Shown piece after piece: positions 23,701 to 28,459 of a DNA stretch of 64,000 nucleotides. How positions within the stretch are numbered: the stretch's first letter is position 1; each line of letters starts with the position of its first letter. The notes below the pieces were generated by a model. The model saw only the letters and a list, made by a program, of their open reading frames with translations. It did not search any database and had not been told where the DNA came from. Made by a program: the position numbers and the translations under genes. This DNA is from a bacterium (lineage in GTDB: Bacteria; Patescibacteriota; Patescibacteriia; JBAXGH01), in contig JBAXGH010000004.1 in the NCBI GenBank assembly GCA_037139515.1, forward strand, positions 7,514-71,513, in the 5' to 3' direction.

Positions 23701-25970
23701 TCGAAGAGGGAAGCTTTGGCGGTAGCACGGAGGCTCAGAATAGTTATCGTGCGCGTGAGCAGAGCGGCGAAATGGTTGATTATAACTCCGGGCATTGGTA
23801 CGCAGATATAGATCGTCTGGGTTGCCTAGAATCCATCTACGCAAAACAACCAGAATATTTGCTGGATACCAAAAAGACATATTTAGAAAACAAAAAGAGA
23901 ATTCTTGAACTCTGCCCGAAATCACAATTTCGAGATTATCTTTTGATGAAAGCACTTGGTCTTGAGGTTCAGGGGAAACGTGGACTCTCGCGTGAATTTT
24001 CGATTTCACCGCTTGCTGATCGGCTGAATAATCCTGCTTTAATTGGCGCCACTGAAAATTCGGTTAATTTTATTGATACCTGGAAGTTTCCGGAAATGAC
24101 CCCGGCAATTTCAAAATATACTAAGTTTACGGAAAAAGCACGTGAAATTTTCAGCGAGCTTCGTTCCGATGATGCAAAAGATTTGCTTACAAGAATGGTT
24201 CTTGATAACGCGCCGAAAGATCTGCCGGAGCTTGAACTTCTTCGAATTACCGAATTTTATCCGGAGCCCTGCGTAGCGCGCGATGATTATCTGAAGAAGT
24301 TCATGCTTCGGAATTCTCTGAGCATTGAAAAGATTCAGGAGTTGCGCAAACTTTTCACGACCGAAGCGTTGCGTGGCGGGGAAGTTCCGCAAATGAAGAT
24401 GCTCGGACTGGAAGTCGCAAGAACCGAAGGGCGGCGACTCAAGAATAAAAAACGCAGTGATTATGTGAACTGGATTTTGGGCGTCGATAAGTATCCGCCG
24501 ACCGAAATGATGAATGCTGGCGGTGCTTTTGGTTTTTCTTTTGAAAGTATTCGCAACGGATTTGCGGGCTTAACCGAAACCGAACGCGAGCGTTCTTTTG
24601 ATGAGCTCCTTTTGCATGATGAGGGAATGCTGGATCCGAAGACTCCGGAGGATCACGAGGCGATGGATAATTTTTTGCGAAAAGTTTATCGCGAAAAATT
24701 TTCGGCTAAGAAAAATACAGAAGCGGAGGCGGAAAATGATATTTTTGAAAAAGTCTTCATGACGGTTTTTCAGAATTTCATTCCGGAGCGTCGAGCGAAA
24801 CTATTTTCCGCACTTTATTCGGCGATGAAAGATAAAAAAGGCGAGAGAATGGAATTCGAAGAGCTTGCCGGCACGTTTCTGGAACAAATTGGCGCCGTTG
24901 GAATCAAACTTGGCCAGATTCTTTCATCGAATGATAATTTACCTTTCAGCCGTGAGAATAAACCGATGCCGAAAAAGCTAAAAGATCGTCTGAAGCGGTT
25001 AAAAGATGGTGTTAGGCCGTTCTCAGTGATCGGTTCCGCTCAGCGCCTGGTTGATTTTGGTCTTGATAAGCAAGTCAAAACAATCGACGGACTCCTTGCC
25101 GCCGCTTCAATCAAGCAGGCGCATTCGGTAACGCTTGCGAACGGCGAGCGCGCGGTTTTGAAGGTGCGTCGCCCGGTTATCGATGATGTTCGCAATGATT
25201 TTGAGGTTCTGGGCGCGGTCTTTAAGGTTTTGAACGAAAATGGTTATCAGGTGCCAAAGTATCTATTGTCTGAGCTCGAAACCATCATTGCCGACGAAGC
25301 TGATTTCACCAAAGAGGCTTCAAACCAGCAGTTGCTTAGCGAAAATATGCCCGAGAGAGTTGGCGGCATGAAGGCGAAGACTCCGGAGATTAGCGCTACC
25401 GCGAGAGGCGTTATGCTTGAAAGGTTTGCTTCCAGCACACCGTATGAAAAATTCAAAAACAAGAATCCGGAAGAAGCTGGCAGAATTTCCGGCGATCTTG
25501 GGCTCGAGATATTGCGCGGGCTCACGAAGACCGGCGTTCTGCACGCCGATTTGCATGACGGAAATATTTTTGTCGATGGTGCCGGAAAAGAAATGACTCT
25601 GATTGACGCCGGTGCCGTTGCCGACATCAGAAAAGTTCAAAAATCAGTGCTCAGGATTTATAAAGGTCTCTCGATGAAAAATAGTCGCATGGTCGCGAAG
25701 TCGATTATCGCGCTTTCGGAGAAGTCCGACCTGGATGCAGAAGCCCTTGCCGGTTCACTCGAAGCAATCGTGAATAGCGGTGAAGGCGTTGATAAAAAGG
25801 CCACCAAACTTTCGTTTGAAATTCTTAATTCGGTTAATCCCGGACCGGAATTGCGATACTTTTTGAAAGCGCTCGCGACCGGCGGACATCATATCGATAA
25901 GATAGATGCGACGAAACCGAAAAATGCGTGGGAACTCGCAAAAGCCGGTGTTAGAATCATGGCTTCTTAA
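20718..25970 (+). CDS. Giant protein (1750 aa) with an N-terminal HExxH zincin-like motif, a long helical middle and a C-terminal UbiB/ABC1-family atypical kinase domain
   Basis: LAHEMRHL at ~aa 180. The C-terminus has AAASIKQAHSVTLANGERAVLKVRRP, VLHADLHDGNIFV and LIDAGAV, which matches the ABC1/UbiB kinase signature. Confidence 0.8.
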   Translation: MGSELGVENILEREPDHRDTPITEPLEKLRRVLDTVTKAENIHKKALEANQKKEKEADARLHSLREKSTVEQLEHFVGFEKDPEFLAKIDEITQKLAKAAGFTRKVKTISVSGDTINAFVYVDKSPGSNEDAPGVYTGSQNEGHIVFLYTGLVTKLAEHLAKQGKKLNEGHIAGVLAHEMRHLIQQKEKRSEKVTRKQEEYDADLGGVELMGRAGYSPRDVVETMDFLKELSKRMPYSKSHPAAASRIVEISGRISNPDLPVPGIEIPSVELTALPKTQTYEGRFDESFEASKPGGEVTDFVRNLLSNSESMFDLHVKRSIASSAIDLAFAKEFVNRPEIPGFFMQYLLLEGRAAEQEIQNEETVIKNIEDDVLGLEAKKMSGGISNEEEYKLNEWKESIRFHQKSLARAKLGGDSRLQLTYNLTHESRLKAWGGELPRLDSEASLRMQSNTEEKINREKFLVENGSLAGGREEAHLEVKANQNVNWDEAASEWLAGKGFSGVHKDTLELGYKRIQASFKNAQSNKDELVKGFAFELDRMNRLEGLAKEQESRRLSAVVADDFRNKFQEILDADLPKDIPDSERAQIYELFAGAFDPIQLSEPGAKAVLEFLKKEIFDNNSIDVGGKAGTLTSQKPARFNLYYVVRAVVESGVSLDAEYLNKTISELKIKCPAEISAFERLEKLNRETRLLSEEGTAAGYYLDTGSKLPSAERDILRKKIVSNLSRSHRDVFGFLILAYGLYLPKDGFLDKESSALFLIKLIKDGYDDHVMTGVLGKLQEKSPSDRETRLRIGSLYDRLKNPRRNTYDASGSELDSLLEFIKAEGIPLPEALAEVYRHNLEGSDVFLEYKKLWQNGDLKGADLRKYYELIRGIERRTNDFGYEPHAHGILAFISAEHFEKTDPVFAAKIVDDQMGEYKYSEKIYEEKLSFEQIIADFPKGKLRNGLLHDCWKRNGASISDFEKLSPFFTEEPESYGMKGENNLGAGFVIIFGNNIEEGSFGGSTEAQNSYRAREQSGEMVDYNSGHWYADIDRLGCLESIYAKQPEYLLDTKKTYLENKKRILELCPKSQFRDYLLMKALGLEVQGKRGLSREFSISPLADRLNNPALIGATENSVNFIDTWKFPEMTPAISKYTKFTEKAREIFSELRSDDAKDLLTRMVLDNAPKDLPELELLRITEFYPEPCVARDDYLKKFMLRNSLSIEKIQELRKLFTTEALRGGEVPQMKMLGLEVARTEGRRLKNKKRSDYVNWILGVDKYPPTEMMNAGGAFGFSFESIRNGFAGLTETERERSFDELLLHDEGMLDPKTPEDHEAMDNFLRKVYREKFSAKKNTEAEAENDIFEKVFMTVFQNFIPERRAKLFSALYSAMKDKKGERMEFEELAGTFLEQIGAVGIKLGQILSSNDNLPFSRENKPMPKKLKDRLKRLKDGVRPFSVIGSAQRLVDFGLDKQVKTIDGLLAAASIKQAHSVTLANGERAVLKVRRPVIDDVRNDFEVLGAVFKVLNENGYQVPKYLLSELETIIADEADFTKEASNQQLLSENMPERVGGMKAKTPEISATARGVMLERFASSTPYEKFKNKNPEEAGRISGDLGLEILRGLTKTGVLHADLHDGNIFVDGAGKEMTLIDAGAVADIRKVQKSVLRIYKGLSMKNSRMVAKSIIALSEKSDLDAEALAGSLEAIVNSGEGVDKKATKLSFEILNSVNPGPELRYFLKALATGGHHIDKIDATKPKNAWELAKAGVRIMAS

Positions 25971-25982
25971 CTTTAGAAAAAT

Positions 25983-26902: not shown

Positions 26903-28459
26903 ATGGAACCAATCGGCCCTGGAATACAACAAGATTTTAGAGGACCTTCGTCGAAGAAGGTCGCAAAAGCAGACAAAGAAAGTACGGAAAAAAATCCCGA
27001 ACTGAAACGACGTTTAGCTTCGATGAAACGCGAGGATTTTGGCGATTATTTGATGAGTTATGCGAAAGAGTTCGGAGAACTTATAGGAATTTCTGATTTT
27101 GGCACGGATGTGAATCGAGTTTACGAGGTAATCACGCGCCGTCCGGAATTTCGCGGATTTACGGAAGACGAAATTAGACATGCAAACGAATCTATTTTGG
27201 AGGAATCTAAGATCGGTTCGAAGATTGAAGGTACGCCACGAGCAATCTCATTAATTATGAGACAGGAAGGTGGGCGAAAAAGAGAGAATGTTATTTTTGA
27301 TGTTGGCGCAGGTTTTTTGCACTGGAAATTTAATAAGGGCACGACGCGCGGCGCGGCACATAAAAAAGCTTGGATTACACTGCGCGACCCGATTCGTGAG
27401 ATTACTCCGGAGCTCATGACTCATGTGATCGATGCCGTAGAAGCCAGTGGTTTTTCCGGTAAGTTTAAGATTTTCGCGGCAACCGATGACACGCTTAGAC
27501 GTTTTGAAAATTTCACAATTCATGCGGATAACGATGACGAAGTCGATAAAGCTCAAAAAGCCGTGATCAATGCCTTAATTTTGAATGGAGTCGTGCCGCA
27601 GGGAGTCGCGCGAGGCGAGGATCCTCTTGGCACGTCGGATAACTACGCACTAGCGCAGAAAATCTGTGCTGCGATGGCGAATCGGGATACGGCCATCACG
27701 CAGCCGCCGAATATTTCTAGGCCCGGGGAAGAGGTAGGGATTAATAGCGGCAGGGCGGTCGAAATTGTCGAATCCGAATCTAAAAGACTCTCAAAATTAT
27801 CGCGCGCTGATTTTATTAAATATCTTCTGACTCATGCCGAAGAATACGGAAAGACTATTGATTTTCCTGATTTTGCCTACAACCAGGTCATGATAAGAGA
27901 TGTTTTAACACGACGGCCGGAACTTCGCGGAATGTCAGAGGATAGGATTGAAAGAATTTTGCAGCCGATGAAAGATTTCGCCAATAAAACCGCAATATAT
28001 CGGGTTGTTCCACGAGCGGTGACCGAATTAGATGAAGAATGGAAAACGAAAAAGCATCCAAATGTTCGAATTGAGAAGACGCCTGGTTTTATGGACTTTG
28101 TTTTCGGCCAAAAGAAAGAGGTTCTCATGGAAACTAAAAATGTTTCCATTACGCTTCGTAATCCGATTCGCGAAATAACGCGGGATTTAATCAATCAAAT
28201 AGTAAAGGCGATCAGCGTCACAAAATTCGACGGTAAGTTCAAGCTGACTTTTCAGACGGATGATTTGCTTAGGCGATTTGATAATCTTGTAATCAGCGGG
28301 AATAGCGATTCGGAACTGGAAAAAGTCACAAAACTTGTGATGGAGAAATTGGCGGAAAAAGGAATCTCTCCAAAATGTGTAGAGAGACCGGATAATATCT
28401 TCAATAGAACGCCTGACTCGGTTCTGGCGGGAAAGATACTTTTCAGAAGCCGCCGCTAG
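26903..28459 (+). CDS. Unknown-domain protein, paralog B (two tandem copies of the ~250-aa domain)
   Basis: An internal repeat. The second copy begins at RLSKLSRADFIKYLLTHAEEYG. Same motifs as paralog A. Confidence 0.6.
   Translation: MEPIGPGIQQDFRGPSSKKVAKADKESTEKNPELKRRLASMKREDFGDYLMSYAKEFGELIGISDFGTDVNRVYEVITRRPEFRGFTEDEIRHANESILEESKIGSKIEGTPRAISLIMRQEGGRKRENVIFDVGAGFLHWKFNKGTTRGAAHKKAWITLRDPIREITPELMTHVIDAVEASGFSGKFKIFAATDDTLRRFENFTIHADNDDEVDKAQKAVINALILNGVVPQGVARGEDPLGTSDNYALAQKICAAMANRDTAITQPPNISRPGEEVGINSGRAVEIVESESKRLSKLSRADFIKYLLTHAEEYGKTIDFPDFAYNQVMIRDVLTRRPELRGMSEDRIERILQPMKDFANKTAIYRVVPRAVTELDEEWKTKKHPNVRIEKTPGFMDFVFGQKKEVLMETKNVSITLRNPIREITRDLINQIVKAISVTKFDGKFKLTFQTDDLLRRFDNLVISGNSDSELEKVTKLVMEKLAEKGISPKCVERPDNIFNRTPDSVLAGKILFRSRR

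Follow-up and report, generated by a model that had tools for sequence, protein, structure and literature searches.

Two successive duplications beside a giant kinase-like gene produced three copies of a rare domain with a predicted phospho-Ser/Thr lyase fold

Two duplications built the locus described here, which lies in a window of 64,000 nucleotides (the whole stretch of DNA analysed). In the first, a domain was doubled within one gene to give A-B, about as long ago as the split from its nearest outside homologue. The second, more recent but also old, was a head-to-tail duplication of a 920-bp segment, with the left breakpoint 90 bp inside a giant kinase gene and the right breakpoint just past the end of domain A. 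The resulting order is giant-tail, spacer, A1, followed by tail', spacer, A2-B, and the stop of A1 arose at the duplication junction. The domain represents a rare, undescribed family that, in a structural model, has the alpha/beta core of phospho-Ser/Thr lyases and may share their chemistry. We assign a probability of roughly 0.55 to this explanation as a whole, namely a two-step duplication, a lyase-fold domain with proposed lyase chemistry, a tentative link to the kinase and a tail kept for the downstream gene. The features of the locus are as follows.

20718..25970, + strand: giant gene, 1750 aa in the ORF list, NCBI name 'AarF/UbiB family protein'
about 21294-21479, + strand: M48-type zinc peptidase, N-terminal in the giant (HEMRH; Pfam Peptidase_M48, 6e-11)
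about 24756-25781, + strand: ABC1/UbiB atypical kinase-like domain, C-terminal in the giant (Pfam ABC1, 5e-25)
25881..25970, + strand: tail copy 1, the giant's last 29 codons and stop, left end of the duplicated unit
25971..25982, + strand: spacer 1, 12 nt, CTTTAGAAAAAT, from the giant's TAA to the ATG of gene A1
25983..26801, + strand: gene A1, 272 aa, one lyase-fold domain (P0002, 'MAG: hypothetical protein WCJ29_01545')
26790..26800, + strand: junction segment, 11 nt, TGGTGGTTTTA, from the last A2-homologous residues (..KIT) to tail copy 2
26801..26890, + strand: tail copy 2, the co-duplicated 3' end of the giant, outside any long ORF
26891..26902, + strand: spacer 2, 12 nt, TCTTAGAATACT
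26903..27700, + strand: domain A2, first half of the 518-aa gene at 26903-28459
27701..28459, + strand: domain B, second half of the same 518-aa gene
28538-28681, + strand: 47-aa helical ORF, downstream, no family matches
28703-31648, + strand: 981-aa coiled-coil protein, downstream, no family matches

The first-pass annotation had proposed a tandem segmental duplication of the giant's 3' end, the spacer and the downstream domain, and this is borne out by alignment of a direct repeat (family D2), in which 25881-25992 matches 26801-26912 over 112 nt with 82% identity and a spacing of 920, equal to the length of the duplicated unit. The DNA repeat families D1, D3 and D4 have spacings of 908 and 774. 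The giant's C-terminus reads GGHHIDKIDATKPKNAWELAKAGVRIMAS and stop, the frame-3 translation of 26801-26890 reads GGHHIDKIDVSDPKSAQELAKAGVRIMAS and stop, and the window has exactly two occurrences of the 40-mer GGAACTCGCAAAAGCCGGTGTYAGAATCATGGCTTCTTAA, which appeared in 0 of 100 shuffles. The short spacers are of equal length, as annotated, with four differences between them and an identical ATGGAACCAA start after both; the second tail, by contrast, starts at 26801 rather than 26802, and 16 rather than 10 differences separate the 90-nt tails. The first G of tail copy 2 is the last base of A1's TAG stop, which sits on the duplication junction, and without the 11-nt junction segment A1 would read in frame into the tail. 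The sequence comes from a metagenome-assembled genome, which is the sole ground for caution that the repeat might be an assembly artefact, as the annotation had itself considered. We regard the chance of this as negligible: there are 16 differences over the 90 nt of the tails and about 25-45% divergence between the flanking coding copies, and copies differing at about 20-45% of positions do not come from a collapsed or expanded repeat. Moreover, window positions 25381-28536 (3156 nt), which take in both tails and the junction, are matched with 100% identity by a Logan contig that a separate assembly pipeline produced from run SRR7053541, and the window's long ORFs are intact throughout.

The domain, of ~250 aa, is indeed present three times, once in the first gene (A1) and twice in the second (A2 and B), and the copies align end to end. 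Protein identity is 53% between A1 and A2 and about 30% between A and B; in a NJ tree A1 and A2 form a sister clade with a bootstrap of 100%, with B, the oldest and most diverged copy, on a long branch. Synonymous sites are saturated both between A1 and A2 (pS 0.67, dN 0.38, dN/dS 0.22) and between A and B, with a dN/dS of about 0.32 for A2 and B. Given this saturation and dN/dS values of 0.22-0.32, the three copies are old, constrained duplicates kept by purifying selection, and their earlier description as diverging quickly and diversifying is not supported. The downstream genes on the same strand (28538..31648) may belong to the same operon.

Tail copy 2 shares 71 of 87 coding nt with copy 1 (16 differ) and 39 of the final 40. 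Adjacent saturated synonymous sites would lead one to expect a divergence of at least 50% (P~1e-9); conserved so far beyond neutral decay, the tail must still be constrained. Neither RNA structure nor a -35/-10 consensus promoter was found in it. We suggest that it may have been kept because it still serves the downstream gene, through expression signals or through translation. A narrower account, which we think unlikely, attributes its conservation specifically to past or present translation. At first, A1 may have read through the junction, in frame, into the giant's 30-aa C-terminal tail, a fusion broken recently by the 11-nt insertion TGGTGGTTTTA; alternatively the tail, which is in the -1 frame relative to A1 and open as a 32-aa GTG ORF at 26792-26890, may be translated, with ribosomes terminating 12 nt before the A2-B start, as after the giant gene. 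Without 26790-26800 the reading ...KIT-GGHHIDK...RIMAS and stop is in frame, and the junction ACC-GGC equals the giant's ...GCG ACC-GGC. The frame is open across all 30 codons, the GTG lies 7 nt ahead of A1's stop, both tail copies stop exactly 12 nt before the identical ATGGAACCAA, and the pair has an omega of 0.17 (pS 0.45, pN 0.11) with 10 of the 16 differences at codon position 3 (P=0.016). However, this bias, over 29 codons only, is not significant if only copy 1 is coding (estimated at about P 0.08), an in-frame outcome carries a prior chance of 1 in 3, the sequence lacks a canonical X XXY YYZ slippery site that could direct -1 frameshifting, and the strongest conservation, in the last 40 nt and the spacer, equally fits a nucleotide-level signal.

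The domain has no match in Pfam, NCBIfam, PHROGs or PADLOC, nor among GenBank phages and PLSDB plasmids, and its family matches amount to 46 clusters at E<=1e-3 among 1.84e9 (1.84 billion) representatives. Some relatives stand alone in uncultured bacteria. Others are embedded in giant proteins, whose open frames run from 1263 to over 5500 aa; eight such frames come from IMG/VR viral contigs. LPD1 is present in one of the family's giants and a sub-threshold ART-PolyVal match (27.4 bits, cutoff 31.2) in another, and one member showed LPD23 in a family-wide scan. The nine other domain loci that we examined comprise giant proteins, some on viral contigs, and sites beside housekeeping genes. The motifs MSxEEFAxYL, YxLLTxRPExR, K(G/A)YITL, GFNGQxK, FDNIVIHG and GxD..SH are conserved across the family.

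An AlphaFold2 model of A2 is confident (pLDDT 90.4, pTM 0.84) and adopts a phospho-Ser/Thr lyase fold. [quoted passage not shown] TM-scores are modest, at 0.30-0.40 over the whole query; the core common to true lyase families spans ~137-144 residues, in line with the domain's aligned length (PMC10604976). Two family members match Pfam HopA1 (PF17914) below threshold (E 0.0085 and 0.17) over the KxY..GxxK..DxxVxH core. Sequence and profile comparisons revealed no significant similarity to any lyase: hhalign against SpvC gave nothing, pairwise alignments of A1 and A2 to lyases were no better than shuffles, and a PDB sequence search returned 0 matches.

The family consensus has the spacing K155-(34)-K189-(18)-H207, paralleled by K104-(32)-K136-(22)-Y158 in SpvC and R187-(32)-K219-(17)-Y236 in CaoY (PMC9486802). 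K189 is found in 41 of 41 outside members and remains invariant across all 44 sequences when the window copies are included. A1 and A2 retain most of the family-conserved polar residues, K155, H207 and D240 among them; B is without K155, Y157, H207, D240, Y74 and H246. The window copies also depart from near-invariant residues (W138F, Y157W, D202E, V205T, H246D), with Y157, present in 40 of 41 members, being W in A1 and A2, and H246, present in 30 of 38, being D. The Arg matching SpvC R148 occurs in only 19 of 41 members, the acid/base pair of OspF is replaced by Tyr or Trp at the His106 position and His at the Tyr158 position, and one sequence-only alignment points to a different register of residue equivalences. 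We propose that the domain may bind phosphorylated Ser/Thr of a protein or peptide and remove the phosphate by beta-elimination. The family-invariant K189 would act as the base, in a site that would be lined by K155, H207, D240 and the N-terminal Y74/R84 motif. A1 and A2 would then be candidate enzymes with an altered site (Y157W, H246D), and B, in which most of these residues are missing, probably serves A2, to which it is fused, as a non-catalytic partner.

A possible, if doubtful, alternative is that the lyase fold persists here without lyase chemistry, as a binding or scaffold pseudo-enzyme for phosphorylated or other peptide segments, three copies of which would give multivalent binding beside the giant protease/kinase. 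The swaps of Y157 and H246 in A1 and A2 and the loss of K155, Y157, H207 and D240 in B would suit such a role, and HopA1, among the best fold matches, is known to bind a host immune regulator and is not a proven lyase (PMC9486802). Against it stand the invariance of K189 and the retention of K155, H207 and D240 in A1 and A2; the dN/dS of 0.22 indicates strong constraint, more typical of a defined active or binding site than of a loose scaffold, and does not separate the two readings. We consider it very improbable that the copies form a rapidly diversifying effector or immunity family expanding beside a toxin-like giant, as first suggested. Three tandem paralogues, the secreted effectors within the fold family, the relatives inside giants on viral contigs and the two giants with LPD1 or ART-PolyVal matches would agree with this idea. 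However, the age of the copies and the constraint on them argue against diversification, the family is rare and not an expanded one, PADLOC, immunity and toxin families give 0 matches, and the window has no evident secretion signal or secretion system. With no PADLOC or Pfam immunity match and no toxin/immunity pairing, the immunity label is not supported. The effector label was partly right by luck: the fold is that of OspF/SpvC/HopA1 effectors as well as LanY/LanKC lyases, and the wider family occurs within giants on viral contigs.

The preferred reading, a duplicated domain with the lyase fold, leaves the role of the neighbouring giant to be considered. A long middle without an assigned family separates its peptidase and kinase-like domains; TIGR01982 UbiB matches at 1.6e-36, under the family cutoff, and the kinase motifs KLGQ, AVLKVRRP, HADLHDGN and IDAG are intact in the translation. 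To our knowledge, ABC1/UbiB proteins are not established as protein kinases. The C-terminal tail is kept in the giant's two orthologues (...TGSHHVEQ...GMRILSA). The lyase-like genes start 12 nt after the gene that ends in the ABC1-type kinase domain, and the pair may act like split kinase and lyase (LanK/LanY) dehydratases. The adjacency to which the annotation had appealed is real here, but is not conserved more widely: no lyase-like gene lies downstream of the giant's only two orthologues (L006 and L007), and no kinase gene is annotated near the domain at the nine other loci. We therefore put forward functional coupling of the giant kinase and the lyase-like genes only tentatively. Taken further, the locus might be a split lanthipeptide-type (class V-like) dehydratase for a ribosomal peptide natural product (RiPP), in which the kinase phosphorylates precursor Ser/Thr and the lyase copies carry out the elimination of phosphate, leaving leader removal to the M48 peptidase and product export to the upstream ABC transporter. 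The best fold match, LxmY, serves as lyase in the LxmK/LxmY dehydratase, the kinase-like domain is immediately upstream, and the gene row also encodes the peptidase domain and, at 16875-18650, an ABC exporter. Even so, this seems to us highly unlikely, as there is no small Ser/Thr/Cys-rich ORF nearby and no cyclase, decarboxylase or other RiPP gene, the kinase is ABC1-type rather than APH-type and ends a 1750-aa protein whose orthologues have no lyase neighbour, and the nine other domain loci include giants and housekeeping neighbours.

Among known systems, the polyvalent proteins of phages and conjugative elements (Pfam LPD, ART-PolyVal) resemble the wider family, which likewise occurs inside giant frames, although the window copies are separate genes rather than parts of a giant chain and the domain is not among the described LPD families. 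With OspF/SpvC/VirA/HopAI1 (PF03536) the domain shares an alpha/beta core with the order strand (KxH/KxY), helix, strand (KxK), helix, strand (FTLY/FTIH), in which its invariant Lys would occupy the place of SpvC's catalytic K136. It differs in lacking sequence or profile similarity, in having Tyr/Trp for His106 and His for Tyr158, and in its YxLLTxRPExR motif, which is N-terminal instead of C-terminal, the Arg-rich phosphate pocket being unrecognisable; it has no type III secretion context, and its hosts are uncultured bacteria and phage-like contigs. The N-terminal lyase domain of LanKC/LanL (ThurKC, CuvL, PneKC, SalKC) is similar in fold and in having kinase-fold and lyase modules side by side, but there lyase, kinase and cyclase are fused in that order, whereas in the window the kinase-like domain belongs to a separate giant and precedes the lyase-like domain, which is duplicated, and no cyclase is present. 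Class V lanthipeptide loci differ in having a precursor peptide and other RiPP genes, absent here, and an APH-like LanK as partner instead of an ABC1-type domain that ends a 1750-aa protein and whose adjacency is not conserved in relatives. The LanY/HopA1-like lyases themselves (LxmY, CaoY; PF17914) have a conserved Tyr where the domain has His207, and their profile matches two relatives weakly and no window copy at any score. Nevertheless, they resemble the window in three respects, namely a stand-alone lyase-fold protein encoded beside a kinase-fold protein, a helical N-terminal part ahead of the alpha/beta core, and a similar Lys...Lys/Arg...aromatic/His spacing (R187/K219/Y236 in CaoY).

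The first-pass annotation described a tandem segmental duplication of the 3' end of the giant gene together with the gene downstream of it, with an unrecognized domain of ~250 aa present three times, and both claims are borne out here. The three domain copies, A1 (a gene of its own) and A2 and B (joined in one gene, A2-B), align over their whole length, with 53% identity between A1 and A2 and ~30% between the A copies and B. The genes concerned, and the one that follows them, are:

20718-25970, + strand, giant gene, 1750-aa ORF
25983-26801, + strand, A1 gene, 272-aa ORF
26903-28459, + strand, A2-B gene, 518-aa ORF
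28703-31648, + strand, coiled-coil gene, 981-aa ORF

A repeat finder detects 25881-25992 again at 26801-26912 (112 nt, 82% identity, spacing 920), along with three more collinear repeat families within the genes at spacings of 908 and 774. The duplicated unit is 25881-26800 versus 26801-~27700, with the spacing of 920 changing to 908 past a 12-nt indel; since there is a single new junction (26790-26801) with collinear homology on either side, the duplication is tandem and segmental. It carried along the giant's last 29 codons and stop (tail copy 1, 25881-25970), and the frame-3 translation of tail copy 2 (26801-26890), GGHHIDKIDVSDPKSAQELAKAGVRIMAS followed by a stop, copies the giant's last 29 residues. 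Tail copy 2 had been placed at 26802, with 10 differences between the 90-nt tails; it starts at 26801, its first G being the last base of A1's TAG, and the differences number 16. Each tail is followed by a spacer of 12 nt and then by ATGGAACCAA, identical after the two copies; the final 40 nt of the tail are found at exactly two places in the window and in none of the shuffles. A1-A2 homology extends to ...KIT and ...AIT, respectively, after which A1 runs through TGG TGG TTT TAG into tail copy 2. The repeat was not made by assembly, a possibility raised earlier: the copies are too diverged for a mis-assembled repeat, and a Logan contig from an independent assembly of run SRR7053541 is 100% identical to 25381-28536, both tails and the junction included.

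In a neighbour-joining tree, A1 and A2 are sisters (bootstrap 100%), while B forms a long branch that joins them weakly (56%) and is about as distant from A1/A2 as the nearest outside homologue, P0003, is. This topology, with synonymous sites saturated in all copy pairs, points to an ancient internal doubling and a later 920-bp duplication, and we consider two such successive events highly probable. The doubling would have taken place inside one gene, yielding A-B, and would have been followed by a later yet still old tandem duplication with its left end 90 bp within the giant and its right end just past domain A. The dN/dS comparison proposed for the copies gave 0.22 for A1-A2 (pS 0.67, dN 0.38) and ~0.32 for A2-B. 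The domain is therefore not diverging quickly or diversifying, as had been supposed; all three copies are old and subject to purifying selection. Overall, the duplication is real, old and mechanistically ordinary, and it offers a clean, datable case of a gene 3' end that was carried along and kept. The stretch encoding the final helix of A2-B (..AGKILFRS, 28426-28447) also recurs 40 nt on, at 28466-28487, just past the stop and in another frame, as EWAGKIIFRGANLRIFGIILIPGIKL and a stop; this is a second small 3'-end duplication at the locus, and it may have truncated an older, longer A2-B C-terminus.

Between the two tails just 16 of 87 nt differ, for which P is about 1e-9 even if a divergence of 50% is assumed, and neighbouring synonymous sites differ at 67%. 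Ten of the 16 differences are at third codon positions (P = 0.016), one alone falls in the last 40 nt, and the pair yields pS 0.45, pN 0.11 and an omega of 0.17. A neutral tail copy 2 would be expected to be near random, so this copy is not decaying, and the co-duplicated gene end remains under constraint. The tail is important to the giant itself; both known orthologues retain it (...TGSHHVEQ...GMRILSA).

The constraint on tail copy 2 may reflect a nucleotide-level expression signal, required by both A genes and spanning ~-60 to +10 relative to the downstream start. This would suit a genome segment in which many genes have no Shine-Dalgarno sequence and several carry an extended -10 box (TGnTATAAT) 8 nt or ~21 nt before the ATG; however, the tails hold only weak variants of this box. 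In copy 1 the variant is TGTTAGAAT at 25949-25957 (in copy 2 the same place reads TGTCAGAAT), in copy 2 it is TGATAAAAT at 26815-26823, where three third codon positions have changed from the copy 1 sequence (CGATAAGAT), and variants of this kind occur in the window at about the chance rate. No sigma-70 -35/-10 promoter or terminator was found in the tail, and its RNA structure z-scores (-0.6 to +0.9) indicate no stable fold. Alternatively, tail copy 2 may be translated, now or formerly. Deleting 11 nt (26790-26800) joins A1 in frame to the tail between ACC and GGC, the giant's own dinucleotide context, and a 32-aa GTG ORF (26792-26890) opens 7 nt ahead of the A1 stop and closes 12 nt ahead of the start of A2-B, a placement that mimics the giant-to-A1 arrangement; the junction has no slippery heptamer for programmed -1 frameshifting, which speaks against that route. 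The similarity of the tails may also stem from local gene conversion. These three explanations stand side by side, and the gene end was probably kept for a role in expressing the next gene. As for the extended -10 boxes of the window, they lie exactly 8 nt before the ATG in four genes (16858-16874, 55005-55021 and 61902-61918 on the + strand, 33278-33286 on the - strand) and 21 nt before it in two (20688-20717, 28508-28537); no Shine-Dalgarno sequence is visible at these genes, and in this organism a large number of genes seem to have no leader or almost none.

The domain itself is rare. No meaningful match came from Pfam (also at E<=10), NCBIfam, PHROGs or PADLOC; PDB sequences, searched both with single sequences and with a profile, yielded nothing beyond noise (designed repeats; a group II intron maturase at 0.027), and a word-index homologue search found only the window's own genes. 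When 1.84 billion representative proteins were searched exhaustively by HMMER with a three-copy profile, 46 proteins matched at E<=1e-3, two of them the window's own genes and one a repeat-protein false positive. The family motifs are MSxEEFAxYL, YxLLTxRPExR, a conserved Trp, K(G/A)YITL, GFNGQxK, (R)FDNIVIHG and GxD...SH(T/S)xLLA. One group of members consists of proteins of 230-550 aa, mostly with a variable N-terminal extension, whose examined loci are chromosomal, in uncultured bacteria, and adjoin housekeeping genes. In the other group the domain is one module of a very large protein, with library members up to 4819 aa; one giant carries LPD1, one a GNAT domain and another, below cutoff, an ART-PolyVal match, and a family-wide scan adds one member with LPD23. 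Eight IMG/VR viral contigs (L013-L020) carry the domain at ~8001-8620, inside open frames of 1263 to >4189 aa, and a 335-kb metagenome contig (L021, Ga0268284_1000004) carries it in an open frame of >5500 aa that runs through all of the fetched 16.5 kb free of stops. These relatives fit the pattern of polyvalent proteins, in which a domain is a module of very large phage or conjugative proteins; the window genes, at 272 and 518 aa, do not. No relatives were found among GenBank phages or PLSDB plasmids. Scans of genomes, viruses and metagenomes found few loci carrying the domain, none with neighbours in common with the window. At two single-domain loci an aminoglycoside-2''-adenylyltransferase-like gene (PF10706) precedes the domain gene by a few kb (L003, 6627-7748; L008, 1-451), which probably indicates shared genome ancestry rather than a functional link, and the locus of the closest outside homologue (L001, MAG DeMMO3_36) has, at 3476-7744, a class II ribonucleotide reductase interrupted by a LAGLIDADG intein.

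Structure prediction, proposed earlier for one domain, was run on A2. A three-sequence alignment gave an unusable model (pLDDT 61); from the family alignment of 44 sequences, AlphaFold2 produced a confident model (pLDDT 90.4, pTM 0.84) with a helical N-terminal part, a beta-hairpin and a beta-alpha-beta-alpha-beta-alpha-beta-alpha core. Phospho-Ser/Thr lyases fill the top 14 places of a Foldseek search against the PDB: the best match is LxmY of the lexapeptide LxmK/LxmY dehydratase (6e-5, 160 columns), and the others are HopA1, SpvC, VirA, OspF and the class III lanthipeptide synthetase lyase domains of ThurKC and CuvL. PneKC and SalKC appear further down, and non-related alpha/beta proteins (eIF4E, chlorite dismutase) only below E 0.02; a search of BFVD structures with the domain model gave no match. 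The four lyase families are mutually barely related in sequence and have in common a core of ~140 residues (PMC10604976), and an alpha/beta core of this size is found in our domain. On the basis of this model, we estimate a probability of about 0.75 that the domain has the phospho-Ser/Thr lyase fold, and homology to these lyases is likely rather than proven. The domain would thus represent a rare, undescribed branch of the fold, common to giant proteins, some of them on viral contigs.

Sequence comparison does not assign the domain to a known lyase family. OspF/SpvC membership by sequence is not supported: PF03536 gave no match even at E<=10 and neither a PDB profile search nor hhalign against SpvC gave anything significant. 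HopA1/LanY membership (PF17914, gathering score 22.7 bits) is not supported either: the window copies do not match, and two family members match below threshold over the conserved core, at 16.4 bits (E 0.0085) and E 0.17. Residue-level alignments to SpvC by hhalign, hmmsearch and Smith-Waterman with shuffles are non-significant and conflict in register.

In SpvC, K104 and H106 lie on one strand and the base K136 on the next, followed by R148 and Y158; in CaoY the residues are R187, K219, R229 and Y236 (PMC9486802). The family presents K155-x-Y157, K189, R200 and H207 in the same order on topologically matching strands, plus D240 and S245-H246. K189 is invariant (41/41 outside members; 44/44 sequences with the window copies) and lies on the strand that matches the catalytic-lysine strand (SpvC K136, CaoY K219), a pairing made by motif order where plain Smith-Waterman alignment to SpvC gives another register. 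Y157 is present in 40 of the 41 outside members and H207 in 39, R200 in only 19. The conserved Tyr that helps deprotonation (SpvC Y158, CaoY Y236) is missing: at the position inferred to match it, 39/41 members and both A copies have His, and B has Ser. Conversely, the position inferred to match OspF His106 is Tyr (Y157) in the family, Trp in A1/A2 and Ser in B. Similar local strings (KFHISVLRD and KAWITLRDP; KWKV and KFKI; FTLY and FTIH) suggest that the machinery may be shared, with Tyr and His having traded places. Furthermore, hhalign and hmmsearch independently pair the family's N-terminal eeFaeyL...YxLLTxRPExR (27020-27155 in A2; family alignment A4) with SpvC residues 176-218, RQFIECL...WKYLSYRNELRS (E 0.03-0.1), a segment reading RQFIECL...YLSYRNELR. 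This C-terminal segment supplies the phosphate-binding arginines R213 and R220 of SpvC, and the pairing may mark a permuted arginine motif resulting from circular permutation.

A1 and A2 retain K155, K189, R200, H207 and D240. Both also have W157, E202, T205 and D246 at almost invariant positions of the family, changes that are older than the A1-A2 split. B is without K155, Y157, H207, D240, Y74 and H246. Judging from these residues, A1 and A2 are plausibly candidate active copies and B is degenerate; should the family be enzymatic, B has very likely lost activity and been kept as a partner fused to A2. The predicted chemistry, beta-elimination of phosphate from pSer/pThr, is a tentative extension of the fold model that we hold to be somewhat improbable as it stands.

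The giant has an M48-type HExxH peptidase near its N-terminus and a C-terminal ABC1/UbiB kinase-like domain with KxGQ, the beta-3 Lys, HxDxHxGN and DxG intact. Its only relatives among 5.8 billion protein clusters are two proteins of 30-31% identity (L006, 10001-15439; L007, 10001-15481), one of which also matches Peptidase_U49 (Lit-like). Both relatives conserve the 30 residues at the C-terminus, and their gene neighbourhoods are unrelated: what follows downstream is either unrelated genes or an RNase J on the opposite strand. No kinase gene is annotated near the domain at the nine other loci examined, and the window locus has no precursor-like peptide (no small ORF being a candidate), cyclase or other RiPP gene. 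Given that the kinase-lyase adjacency is absent at related loci and RiPP genes are lacking, functional coupling of the lyase-like genes with the giant's kinase is only a hypothesis, and an improbable one; a lanthipeptide pathway is unlikely. An immunity family, as was initially suggested, or another anti-phage defence or toxin-immunity identity is not supported either, with 0 PADLOC matches for A1, A2-B, the giant and neighbours and a Pfam match to Imm64 at only E 0.14. Downstream, the 981-aa protein contains a strongly charged repetitive coiled coil (29100-29650, KEKELAEQ(R)ERE-type repeats), and it matches nothing but, weakly, phage tape-measure proteins (PHROG 1538, E 0.0027). Four clustered tRNA genes (Gly-TCC, Pro-TGG, Phe-GAA, Ile-GAT; 15469-16528, - strand) lie just upstream of the row of ABC-transporter and giant genes.

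Phospho-lyases convert pSer/pThr to dehydro-amino acids. To our knowledge, they are the sole enzymes that irreversibly remove protein phosphorylation, and two settings have yielded them so far: the lanthipeptide synthetases, and a small number of type III effectors from pathogens of animals and plants. What is new here is the placement of the domain in the lyase fold; of the copies in the window, two are plausibly active and one is degenerate. If the assignment is true, it adds a third, sequence-unrelated lyase branch, found in viral-contig giant proteins and uncultured bacteria; lyase chemistry would be used more widely, possibly in phage-host or bacterium-bacterium conflicts with kinase signalling, and one module of otherwise opaque giant proteins would gain a testable function. 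We speculate, as a doubtful combination of these elements, that the family is a new phospho-Ser/Thr lyase clade in which Tyr and His have changed places compared with OspF and the arginine motif has moved to the N-terminal side, and through which viral-contig giants and small uncultured bacteria would irreversibly erase phosphorylation in another cell. Here it would have been recruited, duplicated and in part turned into a pseudo-enzyme, in one operon with the giant protease/ABC1-kinase, for a two-step "phosphorylate then eliminate" protein modification.

The lyase-fold genes start 12 nt past the giant's kinase fold, and this order recalls the split LanK/LanY dehydratases. In class III/IV lanthipeptide synthetases (LanKC/LanL), lyase, kinase and cyclase form one polypeptide, whereas the locus here has separate genes, the kinase before the lyase, and no LanC-like domain; that identity is therefore rejected. 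LanY, for its part, works with an APH-like LanK on a precursor peptide; at this locus no precursor-like ORF was found, and the giant's kinase region, with an APH match of 0.0013 below cutoff, is of the ABC1 type.
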